Virus record (IMG/VR): IMGVR_UViG_3300001605_000025
Coordinates: 1-64,000 of that record
DNA: 64,000 nt
Strand: one strand, 5' to 3'
Source: a virus
Taxonomy: Duplodnaviria > Heunggongvirae > Uroviricota > Caudoviricetes
Of this stretch, positions 8,810 to 64,000 are shown one piece after another; positions within the stretch are counted from its first letter, which is position 1, and every line of letters begins with the position of its first letter. The notes beneath the pieces were generated by a model, which searched no databases, had not been told where the DNA came from, and worked only from the letters and a program-made list of their open reading frames with translations. The position numbers were made by a program, and so were the translations under genes.

Positions 8810-9130
8810 TTGGTCTCACCGACACTACGTTTGTTTCATACTCCCAGTCATACTGAACATACGTGCAAGGAATTAGTGCATTCTTACACGCTTCAGCAAC
8901 CTTCTCTTGAAGGTTTGCTTGTGTACATCCTTCTATCCGAAGAAGCATTCCCTGGACGAACACTCTAGATGCATCAGTGATTATTGCACCGTAAACTTCT
9001 TCCAGATCACCATCGTGATATTTTGTACCGTCAGATACAAAATATATCGTCATGGTATCGCACCCCACATAGTTCTACGAAACGCATAGTATACGCCTCG
9101 TACCGTCATACTCATAGCTCGAAACATAGT

Positions 9131-9466
9131 TTAGTCCTCTTTACTGTACTTCTCGATCAGTTGATCGAGTTCTACATAGAATTCTTTCGGAAACTGTTTC
9201 TTCGGTGCAGTCGAACGAGCTTCTGGTATTACCTTCGATTCGTCCAAGTATGCACACTCTCTCCAGAGTTCGAATACTCCAACTACTGGTCCGGAATCTT
9301 CCAGTATCTCGATCAGCTCTCCAACGTCAGATGTTACGATCTGGTTGAACCCAGTATCATCACATTCTTCAGGATCGGGCCACTTATATACAAACGTATA
9401 TAATCGACCGTACTTATCAACTAACCGTACACCTAACGGGTCGTTCGTACTATATGTTTCATCCAT
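9131..9466 (-). CDS. hypothetical protein
   Basis: 111-aa ORF. Confidence 0.35.
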   Translation of the reverse strand: MDETYSTNDPLGVRLVDKYGRLYTFVYKWPDPEECDDTGFNQIVTSDVGELIEILEDSGPVVGVFELWRECAYLDESKVIPEARSTAPKKQFPKEFYVELDQLIEKYSKED

Positions 9467-9468
9467 GA

Positions 9469-9978
9469 TTAGTCCTCCAGATTGATAATCTCGTACGTTA
9501 GCCCGTACATTCGCTTCTTTGTTCGTACTTCGCTACTTCTTTCATATGAACCAGTTAGTCCATCGAACCGTTCGAATAGTTCCCACTCATCGGAAATCTG
9601 TTCTTTCAGTCTTCGAACTTTCAGACACATCGTTCTCCATACAACATTATAGATGTAACATTTCGGTTTGAACGGAATACGTTTCCACTCAAACTTCTGT
9701 TCATGACAACGTAGAACTATGTTCGCGATATGTTCTTCGGAACAGTCAAAATTCAGTCTCGTTGTACCCTCATAGTAGAATGTTAGTTCCTCCATCACGT
9801 TCAGTTGAAATGATATGTTCGTCGGTGCGTTCTTATTGAACTCTCTCGTGGCTTCGGGCGACAGTTTATCTTTGGTCTCAGATGATCTAGATGCTCTTGA
9901 CCGTCGTGAACGATCAACATCATCATACAGTTTCTTTATTCTGTTCCATTTTTCTTGATCTGTTTCATCTAGTACCAT
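9469..9978 (-). CDS. hypothetical protein (first gene of the leftward early block)
   Basis: 169 aa; AT-rich promoter-like region 9980-10060 immediately upstream. Confidence 0.4.
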   Translation of the reverse strand: MVLDETDQEKWNRIKKLYDDVDRSRRSRASRSSETKDKLSPEATREFNKNAPTNISFQLNVMEELTFYYEGTTRLNFDCSEEHIANIVLRCHEQKFEWKRIPFKPKCYIYNVVWRTMCLKVRRLKEQISDEWELFERFDGLTGSYERSSEVRTKKRMYGLTYEIINLED

Positions 9979-10189
9979 GTTGACCTCTCGATCATATTCT
10001 CATTCTTATCTATCGTATATATATTAAACTTGTTCTCATATATAAGTATAGGTTCTCGCAATTAACCGTTAAGATGGTTATTACCATTCAGGCTCTCTAT
10101 ACCAACAAAATGTTTATTATATATAGTCCGGTAGTTTGCATGATAACGGTAGTGGCGCAGATGATGGAACTTAACGGTCTGTGAACTGT

Positions 10190-43722: not shown

Positions 43723-44355
43723 TTAGAATCTCTCCTTTAACGTTCTTCTTATCTGAATTGATTTCGCTGGACCAATTCCACGAACTCTCTGTAAATCTTT
43801 ATCTGGAACGTTTGCGATATTTGTTAAACAATTATGAGTCATCATTAATTGTGTCAGTTGTGCTGTTGAGATTCCAAGTAAACGTGCTGCCAGTATCGTG
43901 CGATCTCTTCTAACGGGAACATTATACTTTCCCTCATCAACTTTCTTCATGAACTTAACTAACGTGATCATACCTTCCCATTCGTTCTCTACCCATAACG
44001 GTTGAATACCGTACCGGCAGGCTATCGATGCGATCTCTCCGAAGAGAATATCTGGATCGATTGTTATCCCGATATCTCGCATATTCTTAACGTAAGGTGC
44101 TATAGCGCCTGTGATAAGCAGAATCTGGACTTTATCTTGGTGGACAGATATTCGTTCAATCTGATCGTGTATTCTACGATTAGGGCCTGTGATACTTCCA
44201 TACAAGTCTGCAATTGTCTTACGTTCAGCCAAACACCGTTCCGATTGGTAATCTCCTTCGTCTAGTTTAATCCTCCTGAACTTCATTTCCGGGAACTTCT
44301 TAGTTAAAAAGTCATAGTACTTTGGTGGCTCTCTTGTATCTACGTCGACTGGCAT
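43723..44355 (-). CDS. ERCC4/XPF-family structure-specific endonuclease with C-terminal HhH
   Basis: VDVDTREPP ... IKLDEGDYQSERCLAERKTIADLYGSI ... DQIERI matches the ERCC4 nuclease signature (VDxRE, GDY...ERK...DL..S); C-terminal GIGPAKSIQI helix-hairpin-helix. Confidence 0.75.
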   Translation of the reverse strand: MPVDVDTREPPKYYDFLTKKFPEMKFRRIKLDEGDYQSERCLAERKTIADLYGSITGPNRRIHDQIERISVHQDKVQILLITGAIAPYVKNMRDIGITIDPDILFGEIASIACRYGIQPLWVENEWEGMITLVKFMKKVDEGKYNVPVRRDRTILAARLLGISTAQLTQLMMTHNCLTNIANVPDKDLQRVRGIGPAKSIQIRRTLKERF

Positions 44356-44594
44356 GGTATCGTTCCGCCTATCATTAGTTCCTCGTCACACCGTTTACAT
44401 CTACAGAGTACCTCGTAACGTACGGCTCCAACAATAACCTTCTTTAAAACAAAATCTGTAGGGTCCTCAGACCATATGCTAATTGGTTTCTCCATTATAT
44501 CACGATGAACTGTAACATCTAGAACGACCAGTTGATCAGCTGGATGTTTACAGTTTACTGCAGGATCTATTCCAACTATACTAGTTTCAGGCAC
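44340..44594 (-). CDS. hypothetical protein with C-terminal Cys cluster
   Basis: 84 aa, CRCKRCDE...C. Confidence 0.3.
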   Translation of the reverse strand: MPETSIVGIDPAVNCKHPADQLVVLDVTVHRDIMEKPISIWSEDPTDFVLKKVIVGAVRYEVLCRCKRCDEELMIGGTIPCQST

Positions 44595-44783
44595 GTTATC
44601 CCTCTCGGAAAACTTTTCGTTCTATCATCATTCGAATAGCTTCTAGTGCTGGAGATATCTCTACCCAGTCTCCAGAAAAATAGCTGGTTGGTAAGTTTGC
44701 TTTATCGCAATATGAATCAAACAGTTCAGACTTCTGCATCCATTCATGTTCTGTGTCCAGAAGCTCTAAAAATTGGACTAACG

Positions 44784-45563
44784 TTAGATTAGTTTCTTTC
44801 CCTTCCGACATACCGACACCACGTCATGCTGATGAATTGATTCCTGATGTGTACAGACGACTACCCAATCTTCCATCCATCCATCGATCGTTGCACCGAT
44901 CACTCTTGAAGCATCCTCGACAAACAGATTCGTTCGGGCGGCTCGCTGACACCAATCTAGTTCGTCCGGTCTCTTCATCAACGGTATAGGAACAATGTCT
45001 ACCACTTCGATGATCCGTGCTACAATTGATGTCATTAGATCGTCCAGGTCCTCCTTCGGCGATAACAATCCAGTTACCTGTGCTAAAGCTCGCTGCATAT
45101 GAGGAACCCCTCCTTCTTGTTTCACCATTCTCATGGCACATGGGCACACACTCGCATACGGAACTTTCATAGTCAGATACCAATCTTCTTTATCGGGTAC
45201 ACGGACACCTTCTAACATACTATCTATAAAGATCAATTGTTCGTTCTCCATCTCATATGCTGCTGTCCAATTACATTCCCAGTAACTGTTAGTCGTTTCA
45301 TGTCCTTCAGCTAACGTTTCTAATAATTCTGAGTTCATATAAATCGGATCGTCCTCGTAATCTGTTAACGCATCAACTAATCGTGACATATGAACACCAG
45401 TCCGATCGATCAGATCAACATAAGCAGACTGACTTGTTAACGTTCGTCGTCCGCTAAAGTCTTGCATAAACTGTTTGAATCCTTTAATACCAACTTTCTC
45501 TAGTGGCATACCACCAGACGGACCTTCAGCATAGTCAGGTAACAATCGTACACATGAATCCAT
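44784..45563 (-). CDS. possible GTP cyclohydrolase I type 2 (FolE2/MptA-like), first step of 7-deazaguanine synthesis; assignment tentative
   Basis: ORF track 44784-45665; internal Met (MDSCVRLL) preceded by AAGGAG SD. EKVGIKGF motif near N-terminus and conserved Cys/His/Glu positions are reminiscent of the FolE2 family; located immediately downstream of queE-queD. Confidence 0.3.
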   Translation of the reverse strand: MDSCVRLLPDYAEGPSGGMPLEKVGIKGFKQFMQDFSGRRTLTSQSAYVDLIDRTGVHMSRLVDALTDYEDDPIYMNSELLETLAEGHETTNSYWECNWTAAYEMENEQLIFIDSMLEGVRVPDKEDWYLTMKVPYASVCPCAMRMVKQEGGVPHMQRALAQVTGLLSPKEDLDDLMTSIVARIIEVVDIVPIPLMKRPDELDWCQRAARTNLFVEDASRVIGATIDGWMEDWVVVCTHQESIHQHDVVSVCRKGKKLI

Positions 45564-45737
45564 ACTACTGCTCCTTTGGGTTCTTCCAGTTACCAAATAC
45601 AGTCTCAAGAACAGCTGCTGAATATGGATGTGTATTACATGAATTATGAAGTAGCTGTTGGTCACAGCTTATAGCTCGTAACGCCTCTCCAATTGCATCT
45701 ACTTTCTGTTCAAGTCTTTTAAAGTCTTTAGTAGTCA

Positions 45738-46385
45738 TTATCTCACCTTATACAGTACATGAAGTCTCGGGCTTACGGCTCCGTTAACTCCATATTCATC
45801 CATCATACGAATAATCTCACGAACCATTCTATTATGTTCCGTTATCATCGTATCGTCCTGGGGAGTCATCGGCATAAAGTACATTCTCACTTCAGAGTGT
45901 TCAGTTGCCCATTTCATCCACCATCTAATATTCTCATACCTAATAACTGGTTTAATAACTACATCTACTTCACAAATGTTAGTCCACAACGTTAATAGAT
46001 CGGTCAGTCCAGAAGTAGGTAGTTCACTATCTTTCGGACTAACAACTACCAGATCGAACGCAGCAACACCAAACGGTATCGTTCCATTCGTTTCGATAGC
46101 ATGTGTCATACCTAACGATTCAACTGAAGCGATCGTATCCTTTATCTCATCAACCTGGAGTCCAGGTTCTCCACCAGTCCAGACAACGTTCCTCACTCCT
46201 TTCTTATATGCTTTAGTAATCAGGCTTTTTAGTTCAGTCCGACTAACATTAATATACAGTGTTGCGTATTTCGTATCACAAAAAGGACAATGAAGATTAC
46301 AGCCCGATAGTCTTATAAACAACGACCGTACTCCAGCTTGTGGACCTTCACCCTGAATCGATATAAACGTTTCGTTTAGTCTCAT
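45738..46385 (-). CDS. queE: 7-carboxy-7-deazaguanine synthase (radical SAM)
   Basis: ETFISIQGEGPQAG..FIRLSGCNLHCPFCDTKY (Cx3Cx2C-like CNLHCPFCD cluster), TGGEP motif. Confidence 0.85.
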   Translation of the reverse strand: MRLNETFISIQGEGPQAGVRSLFIRLSGCNLHCPFCDTKYATLYINVSRTELKSLITKAYKKGVRNVVWTGGEPGLQVDEIKDTIASVESLGMTHAIETNGTIPFGVAAFDLVVVSPKDSELPTSGLTDLLTLWTNICEVDVVIKPVIRYENIRWWMKWATEHSEVRMYFMPMTPQDDTMITEHNRMVREIIRMMDEYGVNGAVSPRLHVLYKVR

Positions 46386-49030: not shown

Positions 49031-50950
49031 TTATGAACATCCAGACCACCCGCATGTCATACACGTTCCGCTTCTACAACCCGAACCGAAACTAAGTACC
49101 GTCCCACATTGTGGACACTTATTCGTTACAATTTCAGATTCTGTAAACCAGAATGCATTCATTCGTTTCGCAAGAATATCCGGACAACTCTTTCCAGCAG
49201 AGTTTGGATTCTTCATTGCGGTAGTACACTCAACTTTCGATAGCGTCGATATGATCCGTTTAATCGTTGTCTTCTCATCACCATAGAGTCTCGGGTCATG
49301 TATATACTTGGAAATAACCTTCCCCATTCCTTCCATGTTAGCCTTACATCCGCCTTGCGTGAGAACATAAGCTTCGTATGGGTGATCGTCGGCGATGTTG
49401 TTATTGGTAGTAACGTGTATCTCGCCACACCCTGTGGGGAAGTCCAACGTTCTACCGTATCGTTCAACTCTGTCTCCTTTAGAGCTCGGTTGGCCTCTTC
49501 CTGGAATCGGTCCAGTAGGTCGAACAGATGTAAGTACCTGTTTATCTTTTGAACCATCTCGATACACCGTTATCCCTTTGCATTTCAGTTTCCAAGCTAA
49601 ATGTATCGCATCCTCAATATCCTGTACTGTAGCACTTGATGATAGATTAATCGTTTTTGATACAGCGTTATCAACATGGTTCTGCCAGGCAGCCATATGT
49701 TTCAACTGCCACTCTACAGATATATGCTTAGCTGTATCTTCTAGTAATCCATGTTGTCTTGCGAGATCGGTCAGTGGATGTTCGAGTGTTACAATTCCAG
49801 CTTCTGACTCTCGTGTGTACGTCCAGTCAAATACTGGTTCGATACCTGACGAACAATCTGCAAGGAAGGATAATGTTCCAGTTGGAGCAATCGTCATAAC
49901 TGTTTCGTTGTTATAGGTCCGTCCTGGAACTTCTCTCGTTGCAACATCATAGTACCTAGATCCAATCTTATCGATCAACTGAATCGCTTCTGTTGATTGA
50001 TAGCTGATACCCATTTTAATCAGTAAGTCAGCCCAACCCATAACACCGGATCCAATCTTTCTAGACAGTAATGTAGCCTCTCGTATCTCTGGTATCGGGA
50101 ACGTATTCAAATCAATAACATCGTTTAACGCTCGTACCGACAATCTTACCGTATCGTCAAGCATCCCGTAATCAAACGTCTCTCCTTCCGGTATCAGTTT
50201 ACTTAGATTGATAGACGCTAAATTGCACGACTCATACGGTCGTAACGGCTGTTCGCCACAAGGGTTCGTACAATCGATAACACCTCTCTCAGGAAACCGA
50301 TTCGTCTCGTTGAGTCTATCCAAAAATACGACACCGGGGTCTCCCGTTCTCCAGGCATGCTCTGCAATAGTGTGAACCAGTCCGTTATCGCTTTGCATAT
50401 CTGAGTCCTTGATCCCGACGCTAATATTGAAATGTGATAGTCCGGATCCACTATCTTTACAGTGTATAAACTCTTGGATGTCTGGATGATCAGCGTTAAG
50501 TATCCCCATATTGGCACCCTCGCGTTTACCTCCTTGGGATACCACACCGGCTGACTCGTTAAGCAATTCCATGACTTTAACAGGACCACATGCTTTCCCT
50601 TTAGTTGATTGTATAAGTGAGCCACGTGGTCTAAGTCTAGAGAAGTTGAAACCGGTTCCACCAAAGTACTTATGCACACGGGCGGCGTGCCAAACCGTTC
50701 TATATATTCCATCCAGTGAATCTTCCACTGGTAAGACGTAACACGCTGATAATCCTCCAGCTCCCGGTACGCCTGCATTAACAAGCGTCGGAGTGTTTGG
50801 CAACCAGATTCCGTGAGACATAGCATTGAGCAATGTTTCCGTGTACTTGCGATCCTCTCGTCCGATAAACTTTGCAACTCTCTCATATACATCACGTTCT
50901 GTTCTCTCTCCAGGTTGTAAATAACGATCCTTTAGTAGTTTCTCTTTCAT
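49031..50950 (-). CDS. nrdJ: ribonucleotide reductase, class II (adenosylcobalamin-dependent)
   Basis: 639 aa; active-site TNPCGEQPL, GTGFNFS, C-terminal Cys4 zinc ribbon (CPQCG...CMTCGWSGC). Confidence 0.8.
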   Translation of the reverse strand: MKEKLLKDRYLQPGERTERDVYERVAKFIGREDRKYTETLLNAMSHGIWLPNTPTLVNAGVPGAGGLSACYVLPVEDSLDGIYRTVWHAARVHKYFGGTGFNFSRLRPRGSLIQSTKGKACGPVKVMELLNESAGVVSQGGKREGANMGILNADHPDIQEFIHCKDSGSGLSHFNISVGIKDSDMQSDNGLVHTIAEHAWRTGDPGVVFLDRLNETNRFPERGVIDCTNPCGEQPLRPYESCNLASINLSKLIPEGETFDYGMLDDTVRLSVRALNDVIDLNTFPIPEIREATLLSRKIGSGVMGWADLLIKMGISYQSTEAIQLIDKIGSRYYDVATREVPGRTYNNETVMTIAPTGTLSFLADCSSGIEPVFDWTYTRESEAGIVTLEHPLTDLARQHGLLEDTAKHISVEWQLKHMAAWQNHVDNAVSKTINLSSSATVQDIEDAIHLAWKLKCKGITVYRDGSKDKQVLTSVRPTGPIPGRGQPSSKGDRVERYGRTLDFPTGCGEIHVTTNNNIADDHPYEAYVLTQGGCKANMEGMGKVISKYIHDPRLYGDEKTTIKRIISTLSKVECTTAMKNPNSAGKSCPDILAKRMNAFWFTESEIVTNKCPQCGTVLSFGSGCRSGTCMTCGWSGCS

Positions 50951-51603
50951 AGTCTCATCACGTTACCGATGTAATCTTCGTCACGCTTTAAGTACAGATG
51001 TGGACAGAAACAAATATGTGTATACGTTCCAACCGGTAGTCCTACAGCTAACGATATATGTTTCTGTAACTCCGTTAGTCCATACATATTTGGACCTAGT
51101 CCCAGTGTCATATCCTCCGACCGGAATACAACTTTCATATTTAAACGTCCTTCTCTTACATCACAATGTATCAACTGTAAGCACGGAACGTCTTCACGAG
51201 TCGTATCCAATTTCGGATTCCATGTTATCGCTTGAGCTCGTCTAGTAGATGGTGACCCAATAAGTTTCTGTTCAATATACGTTATCTGGTTGATCCCAAA
51301 GTGATGCGTTAATCGATCGTGGTAATCGTAGACAAAGTCAGCAGACGTTCCCGCAATCAGATCGTTAGCATACTGATCCATATACTTCTGACTGAACGGT
51401 AGTGTGGGAGGTTTAATAAATCGTGGTTCCACAAACGGAGTTCTAATAAACAATGCTAGTTCTTTAGCCTCAATAGTATCCTGTTTGTTCTCTCCAGGAT
51501 ATACAATCGGGCATTCAGTCTCATCTTTATAACAATGGTTCATGATATACCGTATAACGATCTCATGACCTTTCGCTAAGTTAGGTGCTTGTAACAACTT
51601 CAT
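50947..51603 (-). CDS. thymidylate synthase (ThyA)-family enzyme, short and divergent (possible dNMP hydroxymethylase)
   Basis: RRAQAITWNP, VPCLQLIHC (catalytic Cys in PC motif), RSEDMTLGLGPNMYGLTEL (RSxDxxLGxPFN-like, Asn retained so dUMP-type), CPHLY; only 218 aa and lacks the folate-binding ELLWFLxGxTN segment. Confidence 0.65.
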   Translation of the reverse strand: MKLLQAPNLAKGHEIVIRYIMNHCYKDETECPIVYPGENKQDTIEAKELALFIRTPFVEPRFIKPPTLPFSQKYMDQYANDLIAGTSADFVYDYHDRLTHHFGINQITYIEQKLIGSPSTRRAQAITWNPKLDTTREDVPCLQLIHCDVREGRLNMKVVFRSEDMTLGLGPNMYGLTELQKHISLAVGLPVGTYTHICFCPHLYLKRDEDYIGNVMRL

Positions 51604-55835: not shown

Positions 55836-56340
55836 TGAACACCTGTGTCTGTACTCTTTCTAGTGGAATTGTACCAATATCTTTAACACCATATTCAACC
55901 GACGTAGCTGTAAGTGCCTGTCGGTTACCATACGAAAAATATACATAGTATAGTCCGATAGAGGATCCTTTAGGAAGTGTCACACTGAATGATCCATCAC
56001 CGGTTGTACTAGTATTGGCGACATCTTTAGAACTTTCATTTTTCACGGTAACTACTATAGCTGCTTGTGGAAGACCATCTACTGTGGCCTTACCTTGAAT
56101 TTTAATATAGTCAGGAGTCGGAGTTGGTGTAGGTGTTGGTACAATAACCAATACTAGGAGTATAGCCACGAGTATCATGACTGTCCATACTATCTGTTTC
56201 AGATCCATTTGATCACATCCAATTAGAACCATTTTGTTAGTCCGGTTTGTCCATTGATTTCTGTATCCCAATTCAATCCGATAGATTCCATTAAAGACTC
56301 CATCTTCATCTGAACTGTCTTCAGTCCCATTTTTTGCCAA
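55822..56340 (-). CDS. membrane-anchored protein with (PT)n linker and Ig-like beta domain
   Basis: TM helix (IVWTVMILVAILLVLVIV) then PTPTPTPTPD then beta-rich domain. Confidence 0.35.
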   Translation of the reverse strand: MAKNGTEDSSDEDGVFNGIYRIELGYRNQWTNRTNKMVLIGCDQMDLKQIVWTVMILVAILLVLVIVPTPTPTPTPDYIKIQGKATVDGLPQAAIVVTVKNESSKDVANTSTTGDGSFSVTLPKGSSIGLYYVYFSYGNRQALTATSVEYGVKDIGTIPLERVQTQVFNESS

Positions 56341-58508
56341 TCAACCGTAACACGAGATAATAGATCAGCGTCAGGATAATCAGTATCGATACATATAACG
56401 TCAACGGGACTAATGCAATATAATAACTTAGGCTTCTTGTCTGCCCTGAACTTAATTCCAAGAAGTTTCCGTCCATTCTCTTTACCTCGAATCCAAGGGC
56501 TTGAACCTCTCTCTTCGTGTGAACGATTCTTTGTAATACCCTTAGGTATCGCTACAAGTTGACAACCAACTCTACCGTTCAATATATTATAGTAAGTTTC
56601 TCTTATTAAACGTACTGCTGTTTCGGGATCATTGTTAACGAGAACGTTCTCGAAGAATTGTTTCATCAACGTTCTCGATATCTCGGCAGTATCCGATCGT
56701 TTGACTTCAAGCCCAGTATAGTTAACCTTTGGTGGTAGTTTTGTAAGGTCTTGTCCATCCTTCCAAATAAGAACACCGGCATAACGTTTCTTCGCAGCGA
56801 CGTCCTTGTCCGACCGTTTCTTAAACATAAGTGTGCGGTATATCTTCTCCAGTTTAAGCGTAGGAGCAAGATGGTCGGCGATATTGACGGATCGTGCCCA
56901 ATCCAAGAGATAAGTATTGAGTTCCGTCTGGATGCGCAAACCTTCTTCTGGTGTCTTAACTGGCTTGATAAACGTACTGTCCGTATCCCCATAGACGATA
57001 GTATAACCCAACTCTCTGATGCGTTTATGTAGTTCTCTGGAGATCTCGCGACCCTTTCCAGTAATAAACGCTGCGATTTCGGGTTTATGGAGTCTGGCTC
57101 CAGAAAAAGCCAAATATCCGTAGAACGCGTTGATGACATATTTCAAACTCTGTTCACTAGTTAACATAGCCTTTGAGGCTTTACCTTCCATTTTCAATCG
57201 TCTCATCACATCTCTAGCTTCCATCAATTCAACGATGATCTTAGGTATCATCTTAAGTCTGTCCGGACTCAGATTAAACGCTAAGATAATTGATGGGTAT
57301 AGAGCTTTCAAATCAGTAGTACCAACGTTCTCGTGAACACCAAACTCCGGTTGTAAGACTAACGCTCCTTCATAATCAACCGATACCACATCATGTCGCT
57401 TAGTCGGTAGAGGCATAACCTCACCAGCTAATACGACCTTATGCATGATATAGTATTCGATAATCTTTGCACGTTGATAGCAATCGGTAATCTTGATACC
57501 GACCATCCTACGGAGAGACTCGTAGAACTCTATAAGTCCAGTTTCAGCATCGATCTTCTGTAACGCAATAACATCATTCTTTCCGTACTGTATAAGTTCC
57601 TTCCAACGCTTCTCTTGGATCAAGGTACGGATATGATCTCCGTGGTCTTCGTACGTGAACTGTGCCTCGTGCCGTGCCACAAACTTTAAGTCGTAAGTTG
57701 GTAAACCACCCTTTGGCTTGCTCCAGTCCTTGTAGAATTTCAGCATATCGAAGAGTTCCCGTCCTTGCCATCTCTCCTCGTCTGGGTACGTCGTAGGCCA
57801 CCTCGATAACTTCGAAACATTGACCTTGAGCATCCTTGCTCTTCTTATGATATACGGAATATCGAACTTTTCGCTGTACCAACCGCACATCAGATCCGGA
57901 TCTGTTCTCCAAACGAACTCTACAAATGCTGTGAGTAATTCCTGTTCCGTATCGAACGACTCTTGGTCTGGGTCGATCAACTCTCCGTTCAGTGTAAACA
58001 CTTTGCACTCTGATGTGTAAGAATCTAGGACCTGTATCTGACAGATTGGCCATTTGCATTCCTCCGGTAGTGGCATTTCATCAACTGGACTATCAACTTC
58101 AATATCGAAAAAGCAGCATCTCGGTTTCAACATCGGAACGTCTATTGGGTGTCCCAGTTCATCGAACCCATACATGATTCCGTGATCGATTAGGTAACGC
58201 ATATCGTAAACGATATCCGCTTCGCACGTAAACGGAAAGAGATCACGTACCTTCGGAACGTCACTCGGTAATCTTGTGAAACATCGTGTAACGTTTCGCC
58301 CAAAAGCATCAATGTAACCAGGTTCCGTTCTAGTGATAAAAGGAGTTGACGGAATGTACGACCCTCCTCCGTAAAAGTAAGGTTCTTGATTTCCAAACCC
58401 CATAACTTTGACTTCTTCCGGTTTATCATAATTCCGACCTATCAATACCGTTATTGGTTTCCCGTTATGCATTGTCCAGAACGATTGTTCCCAAACGTAC
58501 CGACTCAT
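56223..58508 (-). CDS. family B DNA polymerase
   Basis: 761 aa; Exo I CFFDIEVD, Pol C motif TIVYGDTDSTFI (YGDTDS), K..Y..AFYG motif. Confidence 0.9.
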   Translation of the reverse strand: MSRYVWEQSFWTMHNGKPITVLIGRNYDKPEEVKVMGFGNQEPYFYGGGSYIPSTPFITRTEPGYIDAFGRNVTRCFTRLPSDVPKVRDLFPFTCEADIVYDMRYLIDHGIMYGFDELGHPIDVPMLKPRCCFFDIEVDSPVDEMPLPEECKWPICQIQVLDSYTSECKVFTLNGELIDPDQESFDTEQELLTAFVEFVWRTDPDLMCGWYSEKFDIPYIIRRARMLKVNVSKLSRWPTTYPDEERWQGRELFDMLKFYKDWSKPKGGLPTYDLKFVARHEAQFTYEDHGDHIRTLIQEKRWKELIQYGKNDVIALQKIDAETGLIEFYESLRRMVGIKITDCYQRAKIIEYYIMHKVVLAGEVMPLPTKRHDVVSVDYEGALVLQPEFGVHENVGTTDLKALYPSIILAFNLSPDRLKMIPKIIVELMEARDVMRRLKMEGKASKAMLTSEQSLKYVINAFYGYLAFSGARLHKPEIAAFITGKGREISRELHKRIRELGYTIVYGDTDSTFIKPVKTPEEGLRIQTELNTYLLDWARSVNIADHLAPTLKLEKIYRTLMFKKRSDKDVAAKKRYAGVLIWKDGQDLTKLPPKVNYTGLEVKRSDTAEISRTLMKQFFENVLVNNDPETAVRLIRETYYNILNGRVGCQLVAIPKGITKNRSHEERGSSPWIRGKENGRKLLGIKFRADKKPKLLYCISPVDVICIDTDYPDADLLSRVTVDWQKMGLKTVQMKMESLMESIGLNWDTEINGQTGLTKWF

Positions 58509-61972: not shown

Positions 61973-63496
61973 TTACCCCGTTAAAAAAGTATAGTGTTCA
62001 ATATCCTTTAACATTGTTCCACGATCAGCTTCAAACATTGGAACAAACTTGAATACTGCATCGCTGTATCCACTAATCGGACATGTTAACGGATCCGACT
62101 CTGGAATCTTAAGTAGTCCGTAAGACGATACATCGAAACTATACAGTCTACAGTTCGGATTGACTTTCATCCTGTACTGTTTAAGCACATCCTGAACGTC
62201 ACTACCGTACCCGTAGCTATTATAGCACTGCATATCGGAGAACAAGAAGATCCGATCGTAGAACTGGTTCTTCGATAATATATCAGTTATTGCTAACCAA
62301 GCATTAGTAGAATGACCAACGTCAGTAGTAGCAACTTTCTGCATATTAGTAAGAATGCTGTCACGTTTAGATAACGGTACAGTCTTGTAAGTTTGTCCGA
62401 ACGCACCAACTGTTGCCTCCTCACATACATGTAACGAGATTGCACTGAACAGTGATGCGATATCAATGCACTGAACAGTACTCTTATCGGAAACGTCTGA
62501 ATGCATCGATCCACTGTTATCAGACGCAATAAATGTCTTGCCTGATATCCGTGGAACATTCTCAACGGATATAGTCATTGCATCGTTTATCGCATCCAGA
62601 ACTTTTGTAGGTCCACCTACCTCACGGTAAGCACTGAAGAACCTATAGGGGAACTGTTTACTTTTCCGTACAGCAACAGGATCCGTTAACCGCTTCAGAT
62701 AAAGATTCATATCAACATCATGCTTCTGGAAGTTTCTTAAGTTCCTCAGTAGCGCCATGTAGCCCATCTTTGGAATTACTTCCTCCCATGTCCTCTTAGA
62801 AGCACCGTTCTTCGAAATGTGAGTCTCCCAAGTAAACGGAGTCTCCAATGTTCCGTTGATAATCTTATCATACAGTACCTGTTGTTCTGCAGATTTCGGT
62901 TTCGGATGTGTCAGGAAGATAACATCTTTCAGTGTTACCTTTCCTTCACGATTATACTTCGCCAGCTGGTATTCATCAAACTGGTTTAACGCATCACTAA
63001 TACCCTTCTTTAGCATTCCAGGTATCGGAGCGAATGTCTTCGGTACATACTTCTTACCTTGAGCTTCAAGTGAGGCTTTCCGTTTCGCTTCTACTTCTGG
63101 GTTAATAGGTGACGACGCTAAAAAGTATGCTATCGCTTCTGCGGGTTCGTCAGCTCTCCGAAGAATACTTGAAACATATTTATACGCACCTTCCAGTTTA
63201 GTTCCAGCCTTAGCATACTCAACTAATAGAAACACAGGAACAGTTCTCAAGTACATTTCGTTCCGTGCATATGCCGCCAACTTCGGTACGTACTCAGGAT
63301 CGTTTACACTGATCCGTTTAACAAGATTCAGTATAGCATCGCTAGTCTGTTTCTCCTTCGTATAGTATGAGTCTCCAGACATCATAAACGACATCGTGTG
63401 GAGCATCAATGCTAACTTGTCAGAAGGCTTATACGCTTCCGCCCCCTCATAGTTAACGGGTTTCGTTCCGTTTGGTTTTGCATTAAATCTCGCCAT
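61973..63496 (-). CDS. rsr: Ro60/Rsr-like TROVE-domain protein with C-terminal vWA (MIDAS) domain
   Basis: 507 aa; N-terminal VNYEGAEAYKPSD (cf. Rsr NNAGGFVYTVSD), HEAT-like repeats, C-terminal MIDAS DNSGSM and TDVGHSTNAW...SD motifs. Confidence 0.75.
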   Translation of the reverse strand: MARFNAKPNGTKPVNYEGAEAYKPSDKLALMLHTMSFMMSGDSYYTKEKQTSDAILNLVKRISVNDPEYVPKLAAYARNEMYLRTVPVFLLVEYAKAGTKLEGAYKYVSSILRRADEPAEAIAYFLASSPINPEVEAKRKASLEAQGKKYVPKTFAPIPGMLKKGISDALNQFDEYQLAKYNREGKVTLKDVIFLTHPKPKSAEQQVLYDKIINGTLETPFTWETHISKNGASKRTWEEVIPKMGYMALLRNLRNFQKHDVDMNLYLKRLTDPVAVRKSKQFPYRFFSAYREVGGPTKVLDAINDAMTISVENVPRISGKTFIASDNSGSMHSDVSDKSTVQCIDIASLFSAISLHVCEEATVGAFGQTYKTVPLSKRDSILTNMQKVATTDVGHSTNAWLAITDILSKNQFYDRIFLFSDMQCYNSYGYGSDVQDVLKQYRMKVNPNCRLYSFDVSSYGLLKIPESDPLTCPISGYSDAVFKFVPMFEADRGTMLKDIEHYTFLTG

Positions 63497-63522
63497 AACA
63501 CTTCTCCAGTATTAGGTATTCG

Positions 63523-63609
63523 GACTTCGGTACTTAACGGTAACGGGTGGGAGTTGAACCCACACTGACTATCATCGTACTTGTCAGCTCCACCATGTAC
63601 GACAGGGCA
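63523..63609 (-). tRNA. tRNA-like element A: perfect 7-bp acceptor stem (GTAACGG/CCGTTAC) and canonical T-arm (GTGGG TTCAACT CCCAC); the 47-nt internal region does not fold by eye into standard D and anticodon arms (type II tRNA or tRNA mimic)
   Basis: Manual reverse-complement and folding; ends ~45 nt upstream of the rsr start codon. Confidence 0.4.
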
Positions 63610-63612
63610 ATT

Positions 63613-63690
63613 CCGTTACCAATGTGACTGCTGGGATTTGAACCCAGGTCGCTCGCGTGGAAGGCGAAGTAACTGTCAACTACGCCACTC
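63613..63690 (-). tRNA. tRNA-like element B: canonical T-arm (CTGGG TTCAAAT CCCAG), anticodon-like arm TTCGC-CTTCCAC-GCGAG (UCC, Gly-like), D-arm-like GTAG-TTGACAG-TTAC, but local acceptor pairing only 5/7; a perfect partner GTGACTG lies at 63737-63743
   Basis: Manual folding; may be a degenerate tRNA-Gly or a Y-RNA-like element with a terminal stem. Confidence 0.35.
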
Positions 63691-63952
63691 TCTTAAGGGT
63701 ACAACCGTTTACAGCTATGTTAAGCATGATGAACCGTACTACACTACAGTCACTACATTAATTGTATGACAGGTGGGGGGGTTATATCCTCTCCGCTTAC
63801 AGATGGAAGCGTCTTTTACCGAGGTGCTTTACCTCTGACCATCGTACCTGTCACTAGTAATGATTGGAGGAACAATCGTTAACGGTGTTATTCCGGTAAG
63901 TCTGAAGTAACCGTTAACTTTACCATCCAATCTCTAACATATCGTTAGATAG

Positions 63953-64000
63953 TGAGTCTGTCCGGATTTGAACCGGAACCTCTTCATCCACAGTGAAGTA
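63953..64000 (-). tRNA. tRNA-His (GUG), partial: 3' half only, 5' end beyond window
   Basis: Anticodon stem CTTCA/TGAAG with loop CTGTGGA (anticodon GTG), T-arm TCCGG TTCAAAT CCGGA, acceptor 3' strand CAGACTC + discriminator A. Confidence 0.55.

Follow-up and report, generated by a model that had tools for sequence, protein, structure and literature searches.

Which RNAs accompany the Ro60 protein of a tailed virus, and are the tRNA-like elements encoded beside its gene tRNAs, Y RNAs or a combination of both? The question is raised by a stretch of 64,000 nucleotides from a member of the Caudoviricetes (IMG/VR record IMGVR_UViG_3300001605_000025, positions 1 to 64,000; hereinafter the window). 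Close to its end, the window codes on the minus strand for a Ro60 homologue preceded by two tandem tRNA-like elements, Element A and, further upstream, Element B. An original prediction, made from the sequence, had read the locus as a candidate phage Ro60–Y RNA module. Ro60 and Y RNAs are conserved from bacteria to humans, and their presence in phages is already known (PMC4201824; PMC12135203). The central idea of that prediction, a Ro60 protein with Y-RNA-type mimics of tRNA, is right. We consider it likely that this is a viral Ro60–Y RNA locus in which Element B and a sibling are Y RNAs with a tRNA-framed topology, i.e., with free tRNA ends surrounding a closed Ro60-site hairpin.

Architecture of Element B and its sibling

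In Pfam, the 507-residue product of the Ro60 gene matches the TROVE domain, a HEAT-repeat ring (PF05731; 2.1e-30, 106.7 bits against a cut-off of 23), and, at its C-terminus, the vWA_Ro60 domain (PF25045; 3.4e-10, 40.5 bits against a cut-off of 27.7), bearing out its earlier assignment as a Ro60 protein with a vWA domain of the MIDAS (metal-ion-dependent adhesion site) type. The MIDAS DxSxS motif (D326-N-S328-G-S330) is invariant across 20 relatives at 52–70% identity. The nearest solved structure is the Ro60 of Thermus phage phiLo (9KOP/9L5Y; E = 2.4e-34), and the bacterial Rsr equivalog model of NCBIfam (NF041674) yields 28.6 bits against a cut-off of 900. To judge from these profiles, the protein is a Ro60/TROVE–vWA protein, predicted to bind RNA, of a distant viral branch of Ro60 that lies nearest to the phiLo version. 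More than 4000 homologues were retrieved, with HGTV-1 providing the best match from an isolated virus. A blastn comparison of the locus with 50,697 phage records gave no match; relatives in IMG/VR were recovered by an alignment-based scan, a single-protein scan having given nothing.

Element B and the related genes described below, which we call framed units, have their parts in the order acceptor 5′ strand, D arm, linker, inner strand, CGnnUGUUCCC, short closing stem and loop, GNCGUAG, the other inner strand, UUAC, anticodon-like hairpin, variable loop of 4–5 nt, T arm and acceptor 3′ strand (Table 1). The strand of 7 nt that follows the T arm has its 7/7 partner in a heptamer 75–85 nt upstream of the anchor; U8-R9 and the D arm come immediately behind this heptamer, and no acceptor hairpin is found downstream of the T arm in the framed units. 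The partner of the inner strand lies downstream in most units; in Element B and nine further units (five close viruses) it lies 42–56 nt upstream and is followed by CGnnUGUUCCC. The closing loops are often stable tetraloops (CUUG, UUCG or GAAA). The acceptor strand CAGTCAC of Element B pairs perfectly with GTGACTG, as had been proposed along with the T arm and the Gly-like arm, all of which are present in the sequence. However, by ending the module at 63743, the original prediction cut off the 5′ acceptor strand, which lies 10 nt beyond. It had also taken this stem for a terminal stem of the Y-RNA type; it is instead a true tRNA acceptor stem, and the predicted Ro60-binding module is the internal closed hairpin, the reverse of the arrangement in YrlA. 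The 3′ end of Element B encodes no CCA and lies 127 nt 5′ of the Ro60 start codon on the same strand, within the 4 kb used as a limit for YrlA genes.

At default settings ARAGORN calls no tRNA in the whole window. The Rfam tRNA family (RF00005) at its gathering score matches neither Element A nor Element B, and reports in the window only the truncated segment at 63953–64000. Thus, neither element is called an ordinary tRNA by these tools. Element B is called by ARAGORN only with introns allowed or with the insert deleted. With the ~55-nt insert removed in silico, 19 of 20 units are called as standard tRNAs at default settings: Element B becomes tRNA-Gly(UCC), and the others His(GUG), Gln(UUG/CUG), Thr(UGU), Ser, Ile and one with UCA.

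The covariation analysis is based on an alignment of 20 framed units (A2). All 7 pairs of the acceptor stem form in every one of these units and all 7 covary. The inner stem joins the upstream to the downstream strand across the short closing stem. As in the tRNA-like domain of YrlA, little or no variation is seen at U8, at A14, at the GG of the D loop or in the T loop (GTTC.A.TC). In the 35-pair structure 88.5% of the cells are paired, as compared to 36–47% when the partners are slid by 1–3 columns, the paired percentage being partly set by construction (see below). The covariation score is 0.705 as against 0.09–0.13 in the slid controls, the observed value being reached by none of 500 shuffles. 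Independently, RNAalifold recovers the acceptor, D, inner, closing and T helices from the 20 units, with compensatory changes in 21 of its 24 predicted pairs. The covariance model R2, built only from other viruses and holding no sequence of this one, matches Element B over its full length (Table 1), and a second model, R1, gives it 103.9 bits. In the negative control, ordinary tRNAs, including about 20 from Streptomyces phage GiJojo, score at most 47 bits, as compared to 72–120 bits for members. Taken together, the covariation, the R2 score and the ARAGORN call after deletion of the insert argue that Element B mimics a class-I tRNA in full and accommodates, where the D and anticodon arms meet, an inserted hairpin bearing the Y-RNA Ro site. 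A conserved 1×1 mismatch (A2 columns 48/95; A63710 opposite G63677 in Element B), unpaired in 14 of the 20 units, interrupts the inner stem midway; it may be part of a protein-binding site. A strict DNA pattern for the closed Ro hairpin, which hit 0 viral contigs and 1 genome contig, was too strict to inform.

It could be objected that this architecture is an artefact of register, which misreads either tRNA pseudogenes in decay or tandem YrlA RNAs of the ordinary kind, with T arm, closed acceptor hairpin and D arm. The motif order is indeed identical in both registers of tandem arrays, Chen et al. 2014 warn that dimeric tRNAs mimic YrlA (PMC4201824), and seven bacterial units, in which neighbours share acceptor sequences, are ambiguous (class 'BOTH'). 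Yet the 7 nt after the T arm of Element B find at best 5/7 pairs downstream and a perfect partner 125 nt upstream, which is followed by UA and the D arm, and an upstream acceptor partner is likewise seen in 25 units. Moreover, only the tRNA-framed register accommodates the closing stems with their tetraloops and the covariation between the upstream and downstream strands of the inner stem, and conservation with compensatory changes argues against pseudogenes. As the acceptor and inner-stem covariation excludes a register artefact, we give this explanation next to no credence. A canonical-register version of Element B was itself tried and rejected: there is no acceptor hairpin after the T arm, only a 5-nt match (GACAG/CUGUC) into Element A.

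The segment at the window end, held earlier to be a genuine partial tRNA-His, turns out to be the tail of a second chimera. It scores 34.5 bits with the Rfam tRNA model and 36.8 bits with R2, both alignments being truncated at the window end. Its full copy lies on a 74.9-kb contig (L001, 9421–9544) that encodes an identical Ro60 protein; this copy carries a 50-nt Y-type insert like that of Element B and scores 103.9 bits with R2 (E = 1.9e-22). Two types of anticodon-like loop recur among the framed units: CU-NUG-GA, which is His/Gln-like and has G37, and the Thr-like CUUGUAA. Each close virus has one loop of each type, the exception being the present virus, in which a Gly-like loop (UCC) takes the second place. 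A UCA (opal/Sec-like) loop occurs in one unit (L090 2928–3049). On L001 9482–9544 the Rfam tRNA model aligns the Y 5′ motif and inner strand (GGCAUUG-UU-AACGGUU-A) as acceptor and D arm; there are hints that the Ro-site strand itself may have descended from the 5′ half of a tRNA.

Table 1. Features of the Ro60 locus and other listed regions of the window (all on the minus strand; parts of Element B in 5′ to 3′ order).
Feature	Position	Basis or detail
Element B, probable tRNA-framed (unpermuted) Y RNA	63623–63753	R2 95.1 bits, E = 2.2e-20, full length
Element B, acceptor 5′ strand, followed by UA	63753–63747	GTGACTG
Element B, D arm	63744–63726	
Element B, inner-stem strand	63714–63708	CUGUAAA
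Element B, 3′-type motif	63707–63697	CGGUUGUACCC
Element B, closing loop	63696–63689	
Element B, Ro-site motif	63688–63680	GUGGCGUAG
Element B, inner-stem strand	63679–63673	UUGACAG
Element B, UUAC	63672–63669	
Element B, anticodon-like hairpin	63668–63652	TTCGC-CTTCCAC-GCGAG; Gly-like, loop CUUCCAC (UCC)
Element B, T arm	63647–63631	CTGGG-TTCAAAT-CCCAG
Element B, acceptor 3′ strand	63630–63624	CAGTCAC
Element B, discriminator	63623	A
3′ part of second probable tRNA-framed Y RNA	63953–64000	His-like GUG loop, T arm, acceptor 3′ strand; cut by window end
Canonical hairpin-type (YrlB-like) Y RNA module	63864–63930	R3 48.8 bits, E = 2.9e-11
Hairpin between two Y modules	63766–63854	9-bp terminal stem GUGACAGGU/ACCUGUCAU; fold z = −1.5, not significant
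Element A, reduced tRNA-like element	63539–63620	sequence and fold (z = −1.9)
Leader motif	63511–63528	GAAGUCCGAAUACCUAAU; ~30 nt 5′ of Ro60 ATG
Predicted Ro60/TROVE–vWA protein (MIDAS DNSGS), 507 aa	61973–63496	open reading frame and Pfam
Regions of FolE2/QueE-like, ERCC4/XPF, ribonucleotide reductase and thymidylate synthase genes	43723–46385, 49031–51603, 56223–58508	

The array upstream of Ro60 and its spread among viruses and bacteria

The elements first noticed upstream of Ro60 are present, but they are only the tail of an eight-module array extending past the window end. On L001 (window position = 73497 minus L001 position) the Ro60 gene is preceded by 1.1 kb devoid of open reading frames (8900–10000), in which eight copies of rGUGGCr...AAC(A/G)G(A/U)UACUUC are seen on reading the sequence. 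This gene-free gap holds eight Y-RNA modules, all with the signature GNCGUAG...WUACUUCG / CGnnUGUUCCC, six being hairpin or YrlA-like and two tRNA-framed. All eight are co-directional with Ro60, the order being array, tRNA-like element, Ro60 gene. Over the 85 kb of the window and L001, R3, a covariance model of the hairpin form, finds six matches (27–50 bits) and R2 finds two, all of them inside the 1.1-kb gap. R3 was built from 30 units of other loci that had been pre-selected for perfect stems, and their pairing percentage is hence partly circular. The YrlB-like module of the window consists of an outer stem, GGUAAAG, the inner stem UUAACGG/CCGUUAA, a UUACUUC loop and CGAUUGUUCCU. Both stems are present in its minimum free energy (MFE) fold (z = −2.2), and it has canonical Y-RNA ends and no tRNA domain. 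The adjoining 89-nt hairpin, with a perfect 9-bp terminal stem, shares the GGUAAAG of its Y-type neighbor and matches none of R1, R2 and R3; it stays unclassified and is perhaps a Y unit in decay. A gene-free 0.8–1.6 kb of the same make-up lies 5′ of Ro60 in each of the four close relatives for which contig context was checked (L095, L096, L097 and L099; 52–60% identity), and every one of five close viruses has exactly two framed and three to six canonical units.

We surveyed about 95 Ro60 loci, bacterial and viral, from metagenomes and IMG/VR. In nearly all of them the 7-mer [AT]TACTTC clusters, with a spacing of 80–190 nt, on the Ro60 strand directly up- or downstream of the gene. The common unit around this 7-mer comprises an outer stem, G-N-(G/C)-C-G-U-A-G, a 7-nt inner strand and (U/A)UACUUCG; a center that is a short loop in some units and, in others, a T arm followed by a closed acceptor hairpin, UA and a D arm; and then the complementary inner strand, CGnnUGUUCC(C) and the outer stem. 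The bacterial YrlB and YrlA RNAs have the same unit plan, with GNCGAAN0-1G as the Ro-site motif (PMC4201824; 10.1101/312249). The Salmonella rsr–yrl locus, which we read directly, shows the same layout (GGCGAAUG ... UAC ... UUGUCGC). R1 scores of at least 72 bits are reached at 17 distinct loci, including 8 of 10 IMG/VR viral contigs and 0 of 12 loci on contigs >100 kb.

The framed form occurs in two cultured systems, crAss001 of Bacteroides intestinalis and HGTV-1 of Halogranum, and is thus open to direct examination. crAss001 (MH675552) has two unannotated framed units (L104 5624–5767 and 5879–6017), which together with one hairpin Y unit occupy annotation-free DNA downstream of the TROVE gene gp96. 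In HGTV-1 a 132-nt gene annotated "tRNA-Asp (gtc) + Intron" (L100 483–614; KC292026 70440–70571) is a framed-form member (66.5 bits, E = 1e-14); it lies 3 kb upstream of the TROVE gene and is preceded by a hairpin unit. Accordingly, the records of HGTV-1 ("tRNA with intron"), of crAss001 (blank intergenic DNA) and of many viral contigs (gene-free gaps) can be corrected. Streptomyces, Caulobacter, Gordonia and Xylella/Xanthomonas phages have canonical arrays.

The Rfam comparison suggested by the original prediction did not bear fruit: at E ≤ 10 the upstream region yields no Y_RNA- or YrlA-like family, only tRNA, tmRNA T-arm and chance matches. WUACUUC preceded by GNCGUAG offers a simple marker for the Y-RNA arrays of these loci, which went unreported by Rfam, and, in the form GNCGUAG-N7-WUACUUC, it is equally handy for bacterial arrays. 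Many bacterial Ro60 genes are followed by 5–9 Y-RNA units (L010 5690–7060, L021 5580–6450, L074 4460–5030), far exceeding the one or two per genome discussed in the literature that we found. A record labelled as 'Salmonella phage S.Kent 1-2-1' (OR851267; L110, 2244 bp) contains the 3′ end of rsr, three Yrl-type units and an open reading frame taken as the start of rtcB; the record resembles a piece of the Salmonella chromosome more than a phage sequence.

How then do the framed units relate to known Y RNAs? The YrlA RNAs of Salmonella, Mycobacterium and mycobacteriophages (PMC4201824; 10.1101/312249; PDB 6CU1) resemble them in being same-strand neighbors of Ro60 and in having a conserved purine-rich Ro-site strand (GNCGAA-type in YrlA), a helix, a conserved UA(C), T arm, acceptor-like stem and a D arm with elbow nucleotides. 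However, YrlA ends in the Ro-binding stem and has a loop-closed acceptor stem (permuted, in the order T arm, acceptor stem, D arm), whereas Element B, lacking this arrangement, has free tRNA ends and a closed Ro hairpin. The Ro-site strand also differs, being GUGGCGUAG in Element B (i.e., GNCG-UA-G), GNCGAAN0-1G in YrlA and GGCGAAUG in the Salmonella units. Against the suggested likeness to a YrlA without an anticodon arm, Element B retains a full anticodon-like arm (5 bp/7 nt), which, unlike in YrlA, is always kept; an anticodon-like 'V' hairpin is also seen in many bacterial members of the loci examined. YrlA is a permuted tRNA, and the framed form appears in turn to be YrlA in circularly permuted order. 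In the known permuted RNA the termini arise from a cut in the acceptor loop, giving two pieces, whereas the gene of a framed unit encodes the tRNA order in a single chain.

Phage phiLo, with the closest solved Ro60, likewise has Y-like RNAs directly 5′ of the Ro60 gene (Yrl1 and Yrl2; 9KOP, 9L5Y), and its Ro60 binds these in vitro (PMC12135203). In contrast to the eight modules of the present array, there are two phiLo RNAs, which are stem-bulge-stem hairpins with a CGAA motif and no tRNA frame reported. Full-text literature searches, which did not cover all reviews of the field, found no description of a tRNA-framed Y-RNA topology. In their survey, Chen et al. dropped every candidate overlapping annotated tandem tRNAs (PMC4201824), so that the framed form would have been hidden. 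What appears to be new is the tRNA-framed topology encoded by the gene, its spread over viruses of both bacteria and archaea, and how large the array is.

Possible decoding, tethering or decoy roles of the framed units

That 19 of 20 units without the insert are standard tRNAs with sensible anticodon loops (ARAGORN) raises the prospect that the units truly serve in decoding, as tRNAs for Gly, His, Gln, Thr and others, and that the Y-like segment is either tolerated as an extra arm or cut out beforehand as an intron. Ordinary tRNAs are found in the same arrays (Tyr/Asn/Lys in L005, Cys in L099), the virus probably has an archaeal host, and the HGTV-1 copy stands in GenBank as 'tRNA-Asp + intron'. 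Archaea splice tRNA introns at non-canonical positions, and these introns can encode functional small RNAs, such as the box C/D RNA in the haloarchaeal tRNA-Trp intron. Framed units similarly have a non-coding RNA module within a tRNA gene. However, unlike such introns, they show no consistent bulge-helix-bulge at the insert boundaries (a relaxed-limit scan of 21 units gave scattered, inconsistent matches, none of them there), have the insert at the D/anticodon junction and are present in a bacterial phage too. Further, the inner helix is continuous apart from the 1×1 mismatch. crAss001, which has the framed form, infects Bacteroides, a bacterium, and bacteria are not known to have a tRNA splicing endonuclease. 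Motifs of Y hairpins that stand alone recur in the supposed intron, which is also in tight linkage with Ro60. Likewise, every unit has UUCG as the 5′ strand of its anticodon stem, since this strand belongs to the Y signature. Finally, orthologous units (L097 vs L099) switch between GUG and UUG loops with the acceptor stem staying the same, which is awkward for tRNA identity. On this evidence we regard a plain decoding function as improbable.

Several points nonetheless weigh against the interpretation of these RNAs as tRNA-framed Y RNAs. A full anticodon arm with U33/R37 loops exceeds what a tether needs. GNCGUAG, the consensus in 30 hairpin and 20 framed units, deviates from the published GNCGAAN0-1G, and R3 misses the validated Salmonella YrlA and YrlB at E<0.1, so that architecture and intermediates are what connects the units to validated Y RNAs. 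The consensus structure of Element B (−28 to −30 kcal/mol) lies 7–9 kcal/mol above its MFE fold (−37), with a z-score of −1.1, and its D stem has 3 pairs and the closing stem 2 supported pairs; as single-sequence folding misses the consensus fold, we relied on covariation instead. The units were first gathered by our own motif and stem criteria, which is why their paired percentages are partly by construction, and the framed units are known here from sequence, their expression, processing and binding being predictions.

A further option, which is unlikely, is that the framed units are dual-purpose. They might be processed, CCA-tailed and perhaps aminoacylated, with Ro60 bound to the extra arm; they might act as anticodon-loop decoys; or the Y module might be removed by a route independent of a bulge-helix-bulge. 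If the first version held, the virus would deliver Ro60, with any bound exonuclease, to the translation or tRNA-repair machinery. The decoy version would present His/Gln-, Thr- and Gly-like loops to host anticodon nucleases or tRNA-modifying enzymes, and removal of the Y module would yield both a working tRNA and a free Y RNA. Dual-purpose units of either sort would also hint that YrlA-type Y RNAs began as tRNA genes, which gained a Ro-binding arm and became permuted afterwards.

Returning to the favored interpretation as tRNA-framed Y RNAs, the units constitute a family defined by sequence, structure, topology and linkage to Ro60. We infer their processing and Ro60 binding from YrlA biology (PMC4201824) and the phiLo binding data (PMC12135203), and posit the following working. 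The array would be transcribed together with the flanking genes. Host RNase P and tRNase Z, acting at the tRNA-like ends, would excise the units from the polycistronic precursor, with CCA being added; the same excision would free the neighboring hairpin Y RNAs and the Ro60 mRNA. The viral Ro60 would bind the internal hairpin, in which a bulged helix, with one strand bearing GNCGUAG and the other CGnnUGUUCCC, presumably forms the binding module. The exposed tRNA body (elbow, acceptor end and anticodon-like loop) might then have an effector role, tethering Ro60 to tRNA-binding factors or nucleases, or serving as a decoy for them. The tethering role would parallel that of YrlA and Yrn1, which tether Rsr to PNPase.

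If tRNA-framed Y RNAs are what these genes encode, the framed form offers a concrete evolutionary path from tRNA to Y RNA. An unpermuted, gene-encoded form with free tRNA ends and an anticodon-like arm would also point to tRNA-processing enzymes, and perhaps tRNA-binding factors, as partners.

Element A, the Ro60 leader and other genes of the window

Element A has an 8-bp acceptor stem (GGTAACGG/CCGTTACC), a T arm (GTGGG-TTCAACT-CCCAC) and two small hairpins. Its interior forms no D or anticodon arm, in agreement with the earlier reading. ARAGORN does not call it, and its only Rfam match is to tRNA-Sec (29.4 bits against a gathering score of 47). It was also considered as a Y RNA and rejected, having no Y motif and no match with R1, R2 or R3; the alternative that the elements are Y-RNA-like tRNA mimics is thus supported for Element B, a Y-type mimic on the Ro60 strand, and unsupported for Element A. 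In relatives the last element before Ro60 is a tRNA-Cys (L099), a tRNA-Lys (L005), a tRNA-Sec-like cloverleaf (L095) or a reduced tRNA-like element (L096). The cloverleaf of L095 (3866–3958) lies just 5′ of Ro60. Most economically, Element A would be read as a signal for processing that separates the RNA array from the Ro60 mRNA.

Could the tRNA-like parts in general then be mere processing punctuation, RNase P/Z sites that free hairpin Y RNAs and the Ro60 mRNA and are functionless once cut? Element A is little more than an acceptor stem and T arm, which together are the minimal RNase P/Z substrate. In all close relatives a tRNA or tRNA-like element lies ~45 nt 5′ of the ATG. The promoter/terminator scan, with counts at or near shuffled expectation, found no terminator-like site on the coding strand of the array. 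There is also a precedent in Deinococcus radiodurans, whose Y RNAs come from a precursor shared with tRNA-Asp (PMC4201824). While this account is plausible for Element A, it is incomplete for Element B. It leaves unexplained the embedding of a Ro-site hairpin in a tRNA frame and the conservation of the D, T and anticodon loops from crAss-like to haloarchaeal viruses, and as an explanation of the whole we deem it highly improbable.

Between Element A and the Ro60 start codon there is a leader motif, GAAGUCCGAAUACCUAAU, separated from the ATG by a GGAG Shine-Dalgarno sequence (63504–63507). Its core, GAAGUCCG(A/G), is found at −30 to −34 from the Ro60 ATG in 5 of 5 close relatives and is absent there in other loci (84 Ro60 loci checked), with 3 unrelated matches elsewhere in the −150 to +60 region of Ro60 loci. 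It could be a promoter, a leader element or an autoregulatory Ro60 site. The leader consensus, GAAGUCCG(A/G)(A/U)UNCCU, which stands at a fixed distance from the Ro60 start in the window and in L095, L096, L097 and L099, resembles the GGUCCGA of metazoan Y RNAs.

With respect to the host, the top matches of the family B DNA polymerase (PolB) among 2409 records are all haloarchaeal tailed viruses, and relatives of this virus have MCM helicases. One sample carrying the contig, JGI 3300002220 (record prefix MLSBCLC), we take to be from oil-sands tailings. Together with the HGTV-1 match of Ro60 and an ERCC4/XPF nuclease encoded in the window, this tilts the balance toward an archaeal host; the framed Y-RNA form itself is not confined to archaeal viruses. 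The window further encodes a ribonucleotide reductase with a TSCPD domain and a thymidylate synthase, as well as a FolE2 GTP cyclohydrolase and a radical-SAM QueE-like protein of the 7-deazaguanine pathway.

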